NCBI GenBank assembly: GCA_965223665.1
Contig: OZ245011.1
Span: 2,720,001-2,784,000, forward strand
Source: Nitrospinaceae bacterium
Lineage (GTDB): Bacteria > Nitrospinota > Nitrospinia > Nitrospinales > Nitrospinaceae
DNA: 64,000 nucleotides
Reading direction: 5' to 3'
Below the pieces are notes generated by a model. That model did no database searches, was not told the origin of the DNA, and saw only the letters and a list, made by a program, of their open reading frames with translations. Both the position numbers and the translations under genes were made by a program. Shown piece after piece: positions 6,979 through 15,361 of the stretch. The stretch's first letter is position 1, and each line of letters starts with the position of its first letter.

Positions 6979-9900
6979 TCACTCTTCTACTGTCGCCGCA
7001 GTCTCTTCTTCTTCCACCTTGGGCTCTTCTGGTTCCTCAAATTCGGGCTCTTCTATGCGTATTCCACTATAAGCCCGACACCCTGTTCCTGCCGGAATCA
7101 AACGACCCATGATCACATTTTCTTTCAATCCTATCAGCCTATCCTCTTTTCCACTTACCGCAACTTCAGTTAACACCCGAGTGGTTTCCTGGAAGGAAGC
7201 GGCTGAAATAAAACTCTCTGTACTCAATGAGGATTTGGTAATCCCCAGAAGGACCGGCAATCCTTGTGCGGGCTTTCCCTTATCCTTTATAACTTCTTGA
7301 TTTTTAATGTTAAATATTTTTCGAGTTGACTGTTCACCTACCAATAGATCCGTGTCTCCCGGATCTTCAATCTGCAAATGACGCAACATCTGACGAACAA
7401 TAACCTCAATATGCTTATCATTTATAGTTACTCCCTGCAGCCGATAGACTTCCTGAACTTCGTTTACCAGGTATTTTTGCAACTCGTTTTCACCAAGGAT
7501 TCTTAAAATATCGTGTGGATTTGAAGCTCCATCCATCAAAGCTTCCCCAGCAATAACCGTGTCTCCTTCGTGAACATTAATGTGCTTTCCTCTGGGAATG
7601 AGGTACTCGCGCTCTTCACCATTGTCATTTACTACAACAACTTTACGCATTCCTTTTACAAAACCGCCAAATTTTACCGTCCCGTCAATTTCCGTTATCG
7701 TTGCTTGCTCATGCGGCTTACGCGCTTCAAATAATTCAGCAACCCTAGGAAGACCCCCGGTAATATCTTTGGTTTTTGCAGTTTCTCTAGGAATTTTAAC
7801 AATTACATCTCCCGCATTTACGAAGTCACCTTCATTAACATTAATGTGGGCTCCTGCGGGGAGAATGTATCGACGCAATGTCTCGCCACTATCATCTTTT
7901 ATGGAAATTCGCGGCTGCTTTTTCTCATCACGATGACTAATAATAACCTTTGAAGACAACCCAGTGATTTCATCGAAATCTTCCTTCATGGTTGTCCCTT
8001 CAATGATATCCCCATATGCAATAGTCCCGGCAACTTCAGTCAAAATCGAGTTGGTATATGGATCCCATTCCACCAGGGTTTGATTAGGCTGAACCTCCTG
8101 CCCATCATGCACCTTAAGCTTTGCGGCATACACAATGGAATAACGTTCTTTTTCGCGACCATGCTCGTCCTGCACAATAAGACTTCCATTCCGGTTCATA
8201 ACGATAATCTCTCCTCGCTGATTCCGGATAGTGCGCAATCCGCCATATTTAATTACCCCACCACGCTTTGTACTCAAAGTGGTTTGCTCAACTACACGAC
8301 TCGCAGTTCCACCAATATGGAAGGTCCGCATGGTAAGCTGGGTTCCTGGCTCTCCAATAGATTGAGCCGCAATTACACCAACCGGCTCACCCACTTCCAC
8401 CCAATCGTTTGTGGCCAAGTTTCGACCATAACACTTAACACAAAGCCCTTGATGAGATTCGCAGGTCAAACAAGAACGAATTTTCACTTTCTCAATCCCC
8501 GCGTTATCTATCAACTCAACCGCTCTTTCATCGATAAGAGAATTTGCTTCAATTAACACTTCATTAGTAAAAGGATCGATTATATCTTCCAAAGAAGTTC
8601 TACCTAAAAGACGATCACCCAATGGCTGAATAATCTCACCAGCTTCAACCAAGGAATAAGTTTCGACTCCTTTTAGAGTTCCACAATCTTCTTCCAGAAT
8701 AATAATATCTTGAGCAACATCCACTAATCGACGAGTTAAATAACCTGAATTTGCCGTTTTTAATGCTGTGTCGGCCAATCCCTTACGCGCACCATGGGTA
8801 GAAATAAAGTACTGAATCACAGACAAACCTTCACGGAAATTAGCAGTAATTGGAGTTTCAATAATTTCTCCAGATGGCTTAGCCATTAACCCACGCATTC
8901 CTGCTAATTGGCGCAATTGCTGAGAACTACCTCTCGCTCCTGAATCTGCCATGATGAAAATTGAATTAAAATCCTTCTTATCCACACCATCAACAACTCG
9001 CTCATCCTCTTCTTCCAATTCACGGAACATTTCTTCAGAAACCCTTTCCGTAACATGAGCCCAGATATCGATTACTTTGTTATAACGCTCCCCATTAGTG
9101 ATCAATCCATCTCGATACTGGTTGTACACCCTTAAAACTTCGTCAGCAGCTTTTTGAACCAAAGGCTCTTTGGCTTTGGGAATTTTCATATGATCAATTG
9201 AAATGGAAAGCCCTGCTTCAGTTGCAAACTTAAATCCAAGTTCTTTGACGTTATCCAACAAAGCAACCGTTTTCTCACGGCCCACTTGTTTAAAAGAAGT
9301 AGCAATCAATTCAGAAAGAGATTTTTTATTCATCTCCTGATTAACTAAAGTGAAAGGTAACTCCCTGGGCAACACTTCATACAAAAGAATTCGCCCTGTA
9401 GTCGTTACTTCCAGCTTACCATTTACATTAACCATAATACGCGCTTGTAAGTGCAGCTCGTCATGATCAAAGGCGGCACGCACCTCTTTAGCAGAACAAA
9501 AAACTTTACCCTCGCCTTTCACTCCCCCGCGGATTTTGGTCATATAATAACCACCCAGAACAATGTCTTGACTGGGAACCGCAATAGGCCTTCCATTAGC
9601 AGGCGACAAAACATTATTGGGGGACATCATAAGAAGTTGAGCTTCCACCCGAGCTTCCATTGACAGCGGAACATGCACGGCCATCTGGTCACCATCAAAG
9701 TCCGCATTAAAAGCTGTACAAACCAATGGATGAATCCTAATAGCTTTTCCTTCAATCAACACAGGCTCAAAAGCTTGAATTCCCAATCGATGAAGCGTAG
9801 GAGCGCGGTTTAAAAGAACCGGATGCTTTTGAATTACCTCTTCAAGAACTTCCCAGACTTCCGCTCGTTCTTGCTCAACCATTTTTTTTGCGGTTTTTAT

Positions 9901-11076
9901 GGTCGCGGCATACCCTTTCTGCTCAAGGCGATTAAAAATAAACGGCTTAAACAATTCCAAGGCCATCTTTTTAGGCAACCCACATTGATGCAGTTTTAAT
10001 TCAGGACCTACAACAATTACCGATCGACCTGAGTAATCCACCCGTTTTCCAAGCAAGTTTTGACGGAACCTACCTTGCTTTCCTTTAAGCATGTCACTTA
10101 AGGATTTAAGAGGACGCTTATTCGTTCCGCGAAGCGTTCTCCCCCTTCGACCATTATCAAATAAAGCCGATACCGCTTCCTGCAACATTCGCTTTTCATT
10201 ACGAATAATAATTTGGGGAGCTTTTAACTCCTGAAGTCGCTTTAATCGATTATTTCTATTAATTACCCTGCGATACAAATCATTTAAATCAGAGGTAGCA
10301 AAACGCCCCCCATCTAATGGCACCAACGGCCTTAATTCAGGTGGGATAACTGGAATAACATTCAAAATCATCCACTCTGGGCGATTTCCAGATTTCCGAA
10401 AAGCCTCAATAATTTTTAATCGCTTAGCAATTTTTCTTTTATTAAGAACAGAAGAAGTTTTTACAAATCCTTCCTTAAGCTCTACTGCGGTAGCCTCTAA
10501 ATCAATCGCTTTTAAGAGTTCAAATACTCCCTCCGAACCCACCATAGTTTTAAGTCCGGCTGGAAACTCCATTTCTGCTTCACGAAATTCATTTTCGGTC
10601 AAAAGCTGACCTGGATTAAAATCAGAGTCCCCAGGATCCAAGACTACATAATTTTCAAAATAAACAATCCGCTCAAGCTCTTTTAAGGTAAGATCCAAAA
10701 TATGCCCAATTCGACTCGGCAATCCTTTAAAGAACCAGATATGAGCCACCGGGCTGGCTAATTCAATATGCCCCAGCCGTTCCCGGCGAACTTTAGAAAG
10801 GATGACCTCAACACCACATTTTTCGCAGATCACCCCTTTATGCTTCATTCTTTTATACTTACCGCAGTTACATTCCCAATCCTTTACAGGACCAAAAATT
10901 TTGGCGCAGAACAAACCATCGCGTTCAGGCTTAAAGGTCCTGTAATTGATGGTTTCAGGTTTTTTGACTTCACCATAAGACCAAGACCGGATTTTCTCCG
11001 GTGAAGCTAAACGAACTCGAATAGCATCAAAAATAATTGGATTTTTGGGTTTTTCAAAAAAGTTCAGGTTATCCAC
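6979..11076 (-). CDS. rpoC: RNA polymerase beta' subunit
   Basis: [10 protein letters not shown] active site, N-terminal CNC...CEKC zinc motif, [15 protein letters not shown] start with AAGGAG RBS. Confidence 0.99.
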
Positions 11077-11152: not shown

Positions 11153-14100
11153 TTATTTTGCCGTTTCAATCAGTTCTACATCAATCGCGAGGCTTTGCAG
11201 TTCTTTAACCAAAACATTAAACGACTCAGGCAAACTTGGAGTAAGGTTGGTATCTCCTTTAACAATCGCTTCATACATTCGCTTTCGACCCTCAACATCA
11301 TCCGACTTCACAGTCAACATTTCCTGAAGAGAGTAAGCTGCCCCGTAAGCTTCCAAAGCCCATACCTCCATTTCCCCTAATCGCTGTCCACCAAATTGAG
11401 CTTTTCCACCCAATGGCTGCTGAGTAACAAGGGAATAAGGCCCTGTAGAACGGGCATGAATTTTATCGTCGACAAGATGATGCAACTTAAGCATATAAAT
11501 ATAGCCCACCATTACCTTTTGCTGAAAGGGAAAGCCTGTGCGCCCATCAAAGAGATTTTCTTCTCCTGAAGGAGAACAACCACCCTCATTTAGCAAACGG
11601 CGAACATCTTCCTCATTAGCCCCATCAAATACAGGGGTAGCCATATGCTTACCTGTAGCTTTTGCCGCCATACCTAAATTAGTTTCAAATATTTGCCCCA
11701 CATTCATTCGGGATGGAACCCCAAGTGGATTTAATATCAATTCAATCGGCGATCCATTTTCCATATAAGGCATATCTTCTTCAGGAACAATTTTAGACAC
11801 CACACCTTTATTTCCATGACGTCCCGCCATCTTATCCCCAACTTGAAGCTTGCGTTTCATAGCCACAAAAACTTTCACCAGTTTAATTACACCTGGCGCC
11901 AAATCATCTCCTTTTTTTAATTTCGCCACTTTCTCACTCATCATGGCTTTAAGAATTTGAATTTGGTCTTTGCAACTATCATCTATTTGCTGCATTTCCG
12001 CAGAATCTACATCTTTAACTGGGATCTTTACCAGATCCTTAGAGACAACCCCCTTAAGGTCCTCTGCAGATAATACATGCCCTTTTTCAAAACTGCGCTT
12101 ACCCACTGTCTCGGATTTAGAAACCACTTTACCCAAGAGCATTGAGGTTAACTTTTTCTCTGATTCTGAACGGACAATATCAATCTCATCACTAAAATCT
12201 TTTTCGATTTTGGCAATTTCTTCTTCCTCAATAGAGAGACTTCGAGAATCCTTATCTACACCTTTCCTTGAAAAAACCTTTACATCAATTACAATCCCTT
12301 GAATTCCTGGAGGCACTCGCAAAGACGTGTCTCGCACATCCCCCGCCTTCTCACCAAAAATTGCTTTTAGAAGTTTCTCTTCGGGACTGAGCTGGGTCTC
12401 TCCTTTAGGAGTTATTTTCCCTACTAATATATCGTTTGGCTTGACACTCGCACCAATTCGAATAATCCCACTTTCATCAAGATTCCTCAGAGCATCCTCA
12501 CCCACGTTGGAAATATCTCGGGTAATTTCTTCTTTTCCCTGCTTGGTATCACGCGCCTCGACTTCAAATTCCTCAATATGGACCGAAGTAAAAATATCTT
12601 CTTTTACAACTTTTTCACTTATCACAATTGCATCCTCAAAGTTGTAGCCTTCCCACGGCATGAACGCTACCAAAACGTTACGACCCAGAGCTAACTCACC
12701 TTTATCGGTTGAAGGCCCATCAGCTATAACCTGTCCCTTCTTCACCTTTTCACCTGAAATCACTAAGGGACGCTGGTTAATACAGGTATTTTGGTTGGAC
12801 CGCTGATATTTTGACAACGTATAAATATCCACTTTCGAACCCAGAACCCGATTGTGCCGTTTAGCTTTTTCACTCGATCGAACTACAATACGGGAAGAAT
12901 CAGCACTAATAACCTCTCCATCACTATCCGAAACCACAACAGCACCAGAATCTCGAGCAACAATACTTTCCATTCCAGTTCCAACCAAAGGCGCTTCCGT
13001 TAACAATAATGGAACTGCCTGACGTTGCATATTGGAACCCATAAGAGCTCGGTTCGCGTCATCATTTTCTAGAAATGGAATCAAAGAAGCTGCAACACTA
13101 ATCAATTGCTTAGGAGAGACATCCATGAAATCGATTTTCTCTCTTGGTGACAAAATAAAGTCACCCCCCTGCCGAGCATCCACAATTTCGTTTTGAAGAT
13201 TATTACCGCTATCCATCTCAGCATTTGCCTGCGCAATAACAAACTCATCCTCCACAACCGCGCTATGAAACTCCACCTTATCGCTAACCTTTCCTTCTGT
13301 TACCTTCCGATAAGGAGTTTCAATAAAACCATAGTCGTTAACCCGCGCGTAAGTGCTAAGGGATGCAATCAATCCAATATTAGGACCCTCAGGGGTTTCA
13401 ATCGGACAAATTCTTCCGTAATGAGTGGGATGCACATCCCGGACTTCAAACCCTGCCCGTTCTCGAGTTAATCCTCCTGGACCCAAAGCGCTCAATCGAC
13501 GCTTATGAGTTACCTCTGAAAGTGGATTCGTTTGGTCCATGAATTGAGACAATTGACTGCTTCCAAAAAATTCCTTTATGGCAGCAGTAACGGGCTTGGA
13601 GTTAATCAGATCATGAGGCATAGCAACTTCTAAATCCTGAACAGACATACGCTCAATAATAGCCCGCTCCATTCGAACTAAACCAACACGAAACTGGTTT
13701 TCCAAAGATTCTCCGACTGCGCGAACTCGACGATTACCCAGGTGATCAATATCATCAATCACACCAATCCCATTTCTCAAATCAACTAAATACTTAACAA
13801 CTGCAATCAAATCTTCTTTTGCCAGCAGTCGATTTTCTAAAGGAATATCCAAATCAAACTTTTGATTCATCTTTAATCGACCCACAACAGAGAGATTGTA
13901 TCGCTTGGGGTTAAAAAATAGATTAAAGAAAAGGGTTTTAGCAATTTCAGTGGTTGGAGGATCCCCCGGACGCAATCGCTTATAAATTTCACGAATTGCA
14001 TCGTCTAAGTTATCGATTTTAGCCAAAACCATGGTATCTCGGATGGTAGTATCGGGCAAATCCTCATCAATATGCAAAATATGAAATTCAGAAATCCCAT

Positions 14101-15361
14101 GTTTTCCAAATAAATCTAAAATGTCGTTAGTGATTTCCTTATTAATATCAACCAAGACCTCTCCGGTTTCCGGGTCAACAATTTCTTTCCCCAGAAAAGA
14201 CCCGATCAAATCTTCACGGTCAATTTCAACCTTTTGCACTCGGCCACCGAGCTTATCTAATTTTTTAGAAATTGCTGGAGTGAGTTTTTTCCCAGACTTT
14301 AAAAGCACCTCTTCGGTTTTTGGGTCCACCACATCTTCTAATACTTTATACCCGGACAAAAGACTTTTGCTCGCCATAAAAAAACGATCATCTTTAAGCG
14401 AAACTTTCTCCAAGCTATAAAAAGATTCCAAAATCTCTTCATTAGACATCCCAAATGCATTAAGCAATATGGTGGCAGGCAACTTACGACGACGGTCAAT
14501 TTTTACGTGCAGAATATCCTTAATATCGAACTCAAAGTCCAACCAGGATCCACGATCTGGAATGACACGGGCAGAATATAAAAATTTCCCACTTACATGA
14601 GATTTTCCTTTGTCATGAGCAAAAAAAGCACCAGGAGAACGGTGCATTTGACTCACTATAACTCGCTCCACTCCGTTTATCATAAACGTCCCGGTATGAC
14701 TCATAACGGGCATTTCACCCAGGAAGATTTTTTGCTCTTTAACTTCACGAACTGAATTTATTACGATTTGAGGCACTTTTTCTTGAGCGAGCAAATCTAC
14801 AATTTTTTCGTCAATTTCAGTCCTTGCGGGAAGAAAGGGTTTACCGGTTTGCGGGTGCTTTACTTCTTCAACAATATATTTTCCTGGCAATTCCTTAAGT
14901 ACGCGAGGACTTAAATCAATCCGCTCACGATCAAACACAACCATGCGAACCATGATTTTAATCGGATCGGAATAGGTCAGCCCTTTTTGCCGACATTCAC
15001 TTAATTTAAATTTTTCTTTATAGGCAACCTCATTACCACAGGTCTCACAGGTAACACCGGCTCCGCCTAATTCCTTATACTCTCCGCAAGCACATTCCCA
15101 CACACCGATCTCATAACCCACATATTCTAATCGGGCATTTATATTTAAATCAGAAATAGGGAATACATCACGAAAAACTTCCTCAAGACCCTGATGCGCC
15201 CTTTCAACTGGGGGCACCTGGGTTTGAAGAAATTGCTCAAAGGATTTTTTCTGAATCTCTATTAAATTTGGTATCTCAATGACCCTAGGGATCTTTGAAA
15301 AGTTTAATCTTTCTCTTGAATCAATTTGGACACGATCGGTGGTTGTATTTGTCATAGACAA
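11153..15361 (-). CDS. rpoB: RNA polymerase beta subunit
   Basis: [22 protein letters not shown] and [18 protein letters not shown]; has N-terminal insertions (see findings). Confidence 0.99.

Follow-up and report, generated by a model that had tools for sequence, protein, structure and literature searches.

Descriptions of bacterial RNA polymerase mostly draw on a small number of model enzymes with two zinc sites, both located in the beta-prime subunit. We analysed a 64,000 nucleotide stretch of DNA from a Nitrospinaceae bacterium (GenBank: GCA_965223665.1, contig OZ245011.1, positions 2,720,001 to 2,784,000), hereafter the window, in which the RNA polymerase beta subunit RpoB carries an additional four-cysteine module. 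The rpoB gene lies at 11153..15361 on the minus strand (1402 amino acids, with a TTG start as listed) and rpoC, which encodes the beta-prime subunit, at 6979..11076 on the same strand (1365 amino acids). The module is located at RpoB residues 87-117 (31 amino acids; 15011..15103, minus strand) and the described system closest to it is the zinc-binding domain (ZBD) at the N-terminus of beta-prime, the presumed source of the RpoB module, with its core at W67-V91 of the RpoC in the window (10804..10878, minus strand). Both have the cysteine pattern C-x-C-x12-C-x2-C, with the first knuckle preceded by W-E and followed by G-x-Y-K, and the second knuckle lying in G-V-x-C-x-x-C-G-x-E-V. Unlike the beta-prime ZBD, which is part of the clamp, the RpoB module is placed on the protrusion, the basic loop is replaced by E-Y-K-E-L-G-G and the cysteines can be dispensed with, as seen in 13 of 100 genomes from the phylum Nitrospinota.

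Lineage-specific insertions of beta and beta-prime, such as the BBM2/BEAN and SBHM/HABAS modules (PMC11515920), are the second group to which the insert can be compared. Like these, the insert is compact, occupies a surface loop flanked by universally conserved segments and is restricted to certain phyla; the partner subunit contains a relative of it, as is also the case for the BBM2 module of the same RpoB. It differs from the BEAN and HABAS modules in being a cysteine-rich module, probably of the zinc-ribbon type, with a length of 31 residues. Section 2.2 of Alvarez-Carreno et al. 2024 (PMC11515920) lists five beta insertion sites (beta-uD2, uD3, uD5, uD4), among which the site of the RpoB insert does not appear, and the word 'zinc' is absent from the main text of that article. 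A further parallel is found in ribosomal proteins that exist with and without zinc, for example S4, where certain lineages have lost the cysteines of a small Cys4 ribbon but not the ribbon itself; in the case of RpoB the two states are found in an essential gene present as a single copy, and not in paralogue pairs.

The RpoB insert is a lineage-specific polymerase insertion made from a module common to the partner subunit, and it is unique neither to this genome nor to the phylum. After the known modules common to beta and beta-prime, it is a third case in which a piece has moved from one large subunit to the other. A full-text literature search, outside the insertion catalogues of Lane & Darst 2010 and Iyer et al. 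2004, gave no description of a zinc module in a bacterial beta subunit; these catalogues may list an insertion at this position, because Aquificaceae carry an insert there. In the sections of the Nitrospina gracilis genome paper covered here, rpoB is mentioned solely as a marker (PMC3578206). New in this study are the PDB-wide test of specificity, the exact insertion site beside the strand that binds Mfd and CarD, and the census of repeated cysteine loss with retention of the loop.

The initial annotation of the window, made from the sequence without database searches, had pointed to an ungapped match between RpoB and RpoC with 15 of 25 identical residues and four shared cysteines. Both peptides could be reproduced from the coordinates given there, and BLASTP with the whole proteins agrees: RpoB 88-112 against RpoC 67-91 is the top match (15 of 25 identical, ungapped, 43.5 bits, E 1e-7). 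Within the organism's own genome the RpoC ZBD core is the second match to the RpoB query. The ZBD-like core W88-V112 (25 residues; 15026..15100, minus strand) was defined by translation, BLASTP, an insert-only profile and an AlphaFold2 (AF2) model, and its cysteines C90, C92, C105 and C108 all align with those of the RpoC ZBD at identical spacing. On the DNA level the two copies are identical at 46 of 75 positions and, by our own reading of the DNA alignment, the same codon is used for seven of the 14 identical residues for which there is a choice of codons. This degree of DNA identity and of shared codons indicates that the copy is old, and not the product of recent conversion or of an assembly chimera.

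The match is also specific. A profile built from the insert alone (34 columns, from 20 Nitrospinota genomes) was searched against 177,635 distinct PDB sequences and gave 76 sequences at E<=10. The best 60 of these 76 are all beta-prime chains or cyanobacterial gamma chains (gamma being the N-terminal half of beta-prime), matched at the N-terminal ZBD with a best E-value of 4.9e-5, and neither another zinc protein nor a beta chain was found among these best 60. The beta-prime ZBDs were also reached with a single sequence, RpoB 29-237, in a phmmer search of the PDB (E 1.6e-6), and the profile of the insert with its flanks matched one RpoC fragment (P0195) with an E-value of 1.9e-8 among 1.84 billion representatives. 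In Pfam the 39-residue RpoB insert region matched only Ribosomal_S14 (E 0.13), and the control, the RpoC ZBD alone, gave no match; Pfam is uninformative as a test for the ZBD because this control scored nothing. From these alignments we conclude that the RpoB insert is homologous to the beta-prime ZBD and that the likeness goes beyond a generic resemblance between zinc fingers. Of the earlier interpretation, which is supported in part, this bears out the duplication of a domain between the subunits.

The position of the insertion was determined from phmmer alignments to the beta chains in the PDB. RpoB 29-86 pairs with residues 23-76 of E. coli-type beta chains and RpoB 118-146 with residues 80-108, so that residues 59-89 of the query fragment starting at RpoB 29 have no partner in the beta chains and define the limits of the insertion. 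The absence of the motif from the RpoB of model organisms, stated previously, is thus borne out, as E. coli-type chains have three residues (77-79) in place of the 31. The insert is located in a hairpin loop of the beta1/protrusion domain and not at a position corresponding to the N-terminal clamp position of the ZBD in beta-prime. No solved polymerase beta chain with the insert was found in the PDB, either among the best 60 of 76 matches to the insert-only profile or by phmmer.

A second insertion was found at RpoB residues 147-202 (14756..14923, minus strand), where gaps in the phmmer alignments and BLASTP place it in place of E. coli beta 109-112. It adds about 52 residues to the next hairpin loop, just before the strand that binds the RID domains of Mfd and CarD. 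RpoB 158-196 is similar to RpoC 823-864 in BLASTP, and the insertion matches residues 834-882 of the beta-prime chain 7ye1_D in a phmmer search of the PDB (E 1.8e-7). By these matches the second insertion is a known kind of module common to beta and beta-prime, of the BBM2/BEAN type. It also resembles two more repeats in RpoB, at residues 335-380 and 385-428. The second insertion is present in the order to which the window belongs and in some other lineages, and is absent from some deep Nitrospinota families which retain the zinc insert. Since the zinc insert is found without the second insertion in these deep lineages, the two insertions are independent.

The core of beta1 has been described as an antiparallel sheet of four strands with a flexible loop between strands 3 and 4, and strand 4, which forms the edge (E. 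coli I117-K118-E119), pairs with the RID domain of Mfd (Westblade 2010, PMC3001067). By comparison with this description, the second insertion falls in the flexible loop between strands 3 and 4 and the zinc insert in the preceding hairpin loop; both would then leave from the same end of the beta1 sheet. Other factors are reported to act at this place too. CarD binds the protrusion and reaches the DNA just upstream of the -10 element, at -13 to -15 (bioRxiv 10.64898/2026.02.09.704077), and the NGN domain of NusG contacts the protrusion and the upstream DNA backbone (PMC8940904; PMC3094117). In the genome of the window's organism the CarD_TRCF_RID family model gave a single match (locus L104, G000:C1:819569-819739, minus strand). 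It lies inside an open frame of 807 codons, as would fit Mfd, and the family model revealed no separate CarD/CdnL.

The insert is widely conserved in the phylum Nitrospinota. A query of 90 residues spanning it was matched over its full length in 39 of 41 relatives; across the phylum it was matched in 105 of 120 genomes, including 56 of the 57 of good quality. Five of the 105 matched genomes were hit via RpoC alone; the other 100 have a readable RpoB N-terminus (99 loci and one genome in which it is split over two contigs). The RpoB of Nitrospina gracilis, which is culturable, is 86% identical over residues 70-135. That the cysteines might fail to be conserved in close relatives had been raised in advance as a point that could speak against the interpretation. 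They are conserved for the most part, with all four kept in 87 of the 100 genomes, and lost in the rest: three or four are missing in 13 of the 100, among them members of a genus of the window's own family, while the W, the G-E-Y/F and the L-G-G are retained.

These 13 genomes fall into five genera: one of the window's own family (G003, G007, G010), a second (G025, G028, G031, G034), a third (G026, G029), a fourth (G030, G076, G077) and a fifth with a single genome (G047). The five genera span four families, each of which also has members with all four cysteines. A quick tree of 60 flanking columns, which is poorly resolved, requires five changes of the cysteine state, and at least two changes are forced by well-supported branches. 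Over 96 loci the near-invariant positions of the core are W1 (96 of 96), G6 (95 of 96), L11 (94 of 96), G12 (96 of 96) and G13 (92 of 96). The inter-knuckle loop G93-G103 (15053..15085, minus strand) is thus retained even in the relatives without cysteines, which argues that selection acts on the tryptophan and on this loop, and that zinc is not indispensable to the module. The module is old and under purifying selection. The 13 genomes that run the same module without cysteines amount to a natural experiment. Their loci are L029, L031, L082, L084, L086-L090, L092, L094, L097 and L100, and the recurrent substitutions at the four cysteine positions are T/N, Q/E/G, D or C, and T. Forms without cysteines also occur in the metagenome fragments P0152, P0153, P0169 and P0210.

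Inserts at the same site were found in other phyla, for which the distribution given here is drawn from samples. The profile of the insert with its flanks (79 columns) matched 454 representatives at E<=0.001. Numerous N-terminal pieces of RpoB are present among the best 150 of the 454 in which the insert is longer, begins with N-W-E-C-K-C-G and has three further C-x2-C pairs. This long type belongs to Acidobacteriota: it gave 5857 proteins at E<=0.001, in which all named rows are acidobacterial. Fragment P0158 and its relatives are from Aquificota (Hydrogenothermus, Persephonella, Sulfurihydrogenibium, Hydrogenivirga and Thermocrinis), and the pattern W-E-C-x2-C...L-G-G-x-G-V-x-C-P-x-C-G...Y-K-E-K was present in all 16 Aquificota sequences examined. 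A scan of species genomes with the insert alignment gave 80 loci, 71 of the Nitrospinota type and nine (L176-L184) with an eight-cysteine insert starting with W-E-C-S-C-G-K, three of which belong to the candidate division CSSED10-310 and one to Candidatus Schekmanbacteria. The initial annotation had mentioned cysteine-rich inserts at a similar position in the RpoB of Acidobacteria and had expected that the motif might not be unique; the source names of the matching proteins confirm the former, and the same-site inserts in Acidobacteriota, Aquificota, CSSED10-310 and Schekmanbacteria the latter.

The inserts of these four groups share with that of Nitrospinota the site after Y/F-E-[IV]-G-x, the W-E-C start and the return to K-Y-x-x-x-E-C. 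They differ in their cysteines. The acidobacterial insert has a C-x-C followed by three C-x2-C, the inserts of CSSED10-310 and Schekmanbacteria likewise have eight cysteines, and that of Aquificota has four, with a longer spacer and with C-x2-C in the first knuckle. Of all these inserts, that of Nitrospinota is the shortest and the only one for which direct matches to the beta-prime ZBD were seen. The comparison of these inserts indicates that the insertion predates Nitrospinota. Several environmentally important phyla, including the main marine nitrite oxidisers and the Acidobacteriota of soils, appear to bear an extra cysteine module on beta that was copied from beta-prime.

The basic residues of the RpoC domain were correctly noted at the outset to be largely replaced in the RpoB copy. 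The 12 residues between the knuckles have a net charge of -1 in RpoB versus +5 in the RpoC of the same genome, a charge with which the protein-docking surface suggested in the initial annotation would agree. Over 99 Nitrospinota genomes the mean charge of this loop is -1.3, and that of the 25 core residues is -3.26 (range -7 to +1), while the seven residues after the core have a mean net charge of +1.8. An AF2 model of residues 83-123 (41 amino acids), built with an alignment of 94 sequences, has a mean predicted local distance difference test score (pLDDT) of 81.4. The blocks that cover its first 30 residues score 86-91, and it contains short beta strands (model residues 5-8, 11-13 and 31-33). 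AF2 on RpoB 1-237 without an alignment gave a mean pLDDT of 38.7 and is unusable. The model of the insert is consistent with a zinc ribbon, and it neither supports nor excludes a ZBD-like conformation.

We propose that RpoB 87-117 is a lineage-specific insertion into the beta1/protrusion hairpin loop, which most likely originated as an ancient copy of the ZBD piece of the adjacent rpoC gene. In the genome of the window the four cysteines probably hold one structural zinc, so that the core enzyme would have three zinc sites instead of the two known from beta-prime. The zinc may merely stiffen a knob, in which selection keeps the tryptophan and the G-E-Y/F-x-x-L-G-G loop. Placed on the beta1 sheet, this knob would stand at the edge of the main cleft, next to the docking strand for Mfd and CarD and near the contact between NusG and the protrusion. 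The conserved surface of W and G-E-Y-K-E-L-G-G may contact protein, be it another part of the enzyme or a separate factor, or it may have a structural role. As the loop is devoid of the basic residues which the beta-prime ZBD uses on nucleic acid, a protein-contacting or purely structural knob is most likely, ahead of a nucleic-acid contact of the beta-prime type. We consider this explanation as a whole to be likely; its structural and evolutionary part can be held with high confidence, and the docking part with distinctly less.

Several observations weigh against this proposal, and some of them favour instead an ordinary zinc ribbon from an unrelated source, which would have come to resemble the ZBD in Nitrospinota by convergence or common constraints and not by descent. 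When the PDB was searched by Foldseek with the 41-residue model, no match reached E<=0.001. At the top of the list was E. coli beta-prime (6alf_J), with an E-value of 1.4, 47% identity and a root mean square deviation (rmsd) of 5.1 Å for this small model, and polymerase chains of beta-prime length made up 28 of the 50 rows listed, superposing poorly at 3.1-5.4 Å. Ordinary zinc ribbons superpose better, namely Nob1 at 2.7 Å, Nop10 at 2.1-2.3 Å and Rpb12/RpoP at 3.0-3.1 Å, and because of this better fit the beta-prime rows appear to be carried by sequence identity. VIA-align on 86 chains kept only Nob1 (Z 2.3, rmsd 2.9 Å, 35 residues aligned), with no beta-prime chain at Z>=2 for the small model. 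For the acidobacterial fragment P0141 no beta-prime chain was present among the best 60 PDB matches (E<=1); in this single-sequence search its insert region matched the zinc modules of RBM10, GATA-3, RPA12 and eL37. In Aquificota the first knuckle is the standard C-x2-C, followed by a longer spacer. Together with the P0141 result this means that the likeness to the ZBD is strong in Nitrospinota and weak elsewhere, the acidobacterial side of the contrast being drawn from single-sequence searches. An unrelated ribbon is nevertheless improbable in our view. The PDB holds many zinc ribbons, yet the best 60 of the 76 matches to the insert-only profile are solely beta-prime and gamma ZBDs. The unusual C-x-C knuckle, the x12 spacer, the W-E before and the G-x-Y-K after the knuckle are all common to both domains, and the W-E-C start is retained in Acidobacteriota, Aquificota, CSSED10-310 and Schekmanbacteria. 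The 13 of 100 genomes without cysteines also count against the proposal as far as the metal is concerned, since zinc is then not essential, and the charge of +1.8 after the core leaves some room for a contact with phosphate.

The last point is part of the argument for a second nucleic-acid contact, on the protrusion side of the cleft, to upstream DNA, to the non-template strand or to nascent RNA. The bubble has its upstream edge alongside the protrusion, and of the factors bound to the protrusion CarD reaches -13 to -15 and NusG touches the upstream DNA backbone. The positively charged seven residues (Y-K-E-K-x-K) are conserved, and deep-branching Nitrospinota have C-E-K-C-K-K. We nevertheless regard such a contact as unlikely, albeit the least unlikely of the alternatives, as the RpoB loop is neutral to acidic where that of the ZBD is basic, and the 25 core residues are on average acidic over the 99 genomes. 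A more ambitious version of the proposal is a long shot. In it the beta copy would be the functional equivalent, on the facing jaw of the cleft, of the beta-prime ZBD, and would form together with the BBM2-like insertion a built-in platform at the docking site of Mfd, CarD and NusG. In bacteria which, as in this genome, show no separate CarD, such a platform might keep the upstream fork in place or bring in a lineage-specific factor. Its four cysteines would confer a sensitivity to zinc or thiol oxidation, which the genera without cysteines would have given up. Finally, the likeness could be recent, through gene conversion from rpoC to rpoB or an assembly chimera. Conversion would be mechanically easy, as the two genes are adjacent on the same strand, but with 46 of 75 nucleotides identical the synonymous sites look randomised, and 100 Nitrospinota genomes, as well as other phyla, have the insert with residues that are characteristic of it. 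A recent origin is so improbable that we reject both the chimera and the conversion on the DNA divergence and the phylum-wide conservation; that a chimera was unlikely had been anticipated, and the conservation in 100 genomes excludes it.

Both polymerase genes of the window encode full Pfam domain sets. RpoB has six Rpb2/beta families (e.g. Pfam: PF00562, E 3.5e-141) and RpoC has the Rpb1/beta-prime families (e.g. Pfam: PF04997, E 5.4e-84). They are part of a canonical gene block on the minus strand, secE-nusG-rplK-rplA-rplJ-rplL-rpoB-rpoC.

Further variants of the insert are found in P0174, P0183 and P0151. In the ESM Atlas P0158 and P0183 fall into RpoB clusters whose taxa are Acidobacteriota or are not recorded. 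The insert of CSSED10-310 and Schekmanbacteria is about 70 residues long and contains C-x-C and C-x2-C twice each, with a conserved G-V-G-D-L-L-K between these pairs. Five loci (L115, L130, L157, L171 and L175) come from public bins labelled Nitrospirota/Nitrospirae or Verrucomicrobiota and have a typical Nitrospinota RpoB N-terminus; their labels or binning are probably wrong. Columns 17-58 of the profile with flanks are also matched repeatedly by large repeat proteins, namely P0130 (3013 amino acids, 22 stretches), P0146 (1552 amino acids, 13 stretches), P0261 (692 amino acids, seven stretches), P0265 and P0249. These matches, to cell-surface-like W-x-G-x-C-G...C...F-E-K units, are probably due to chance and do not represent zinc ribbons.

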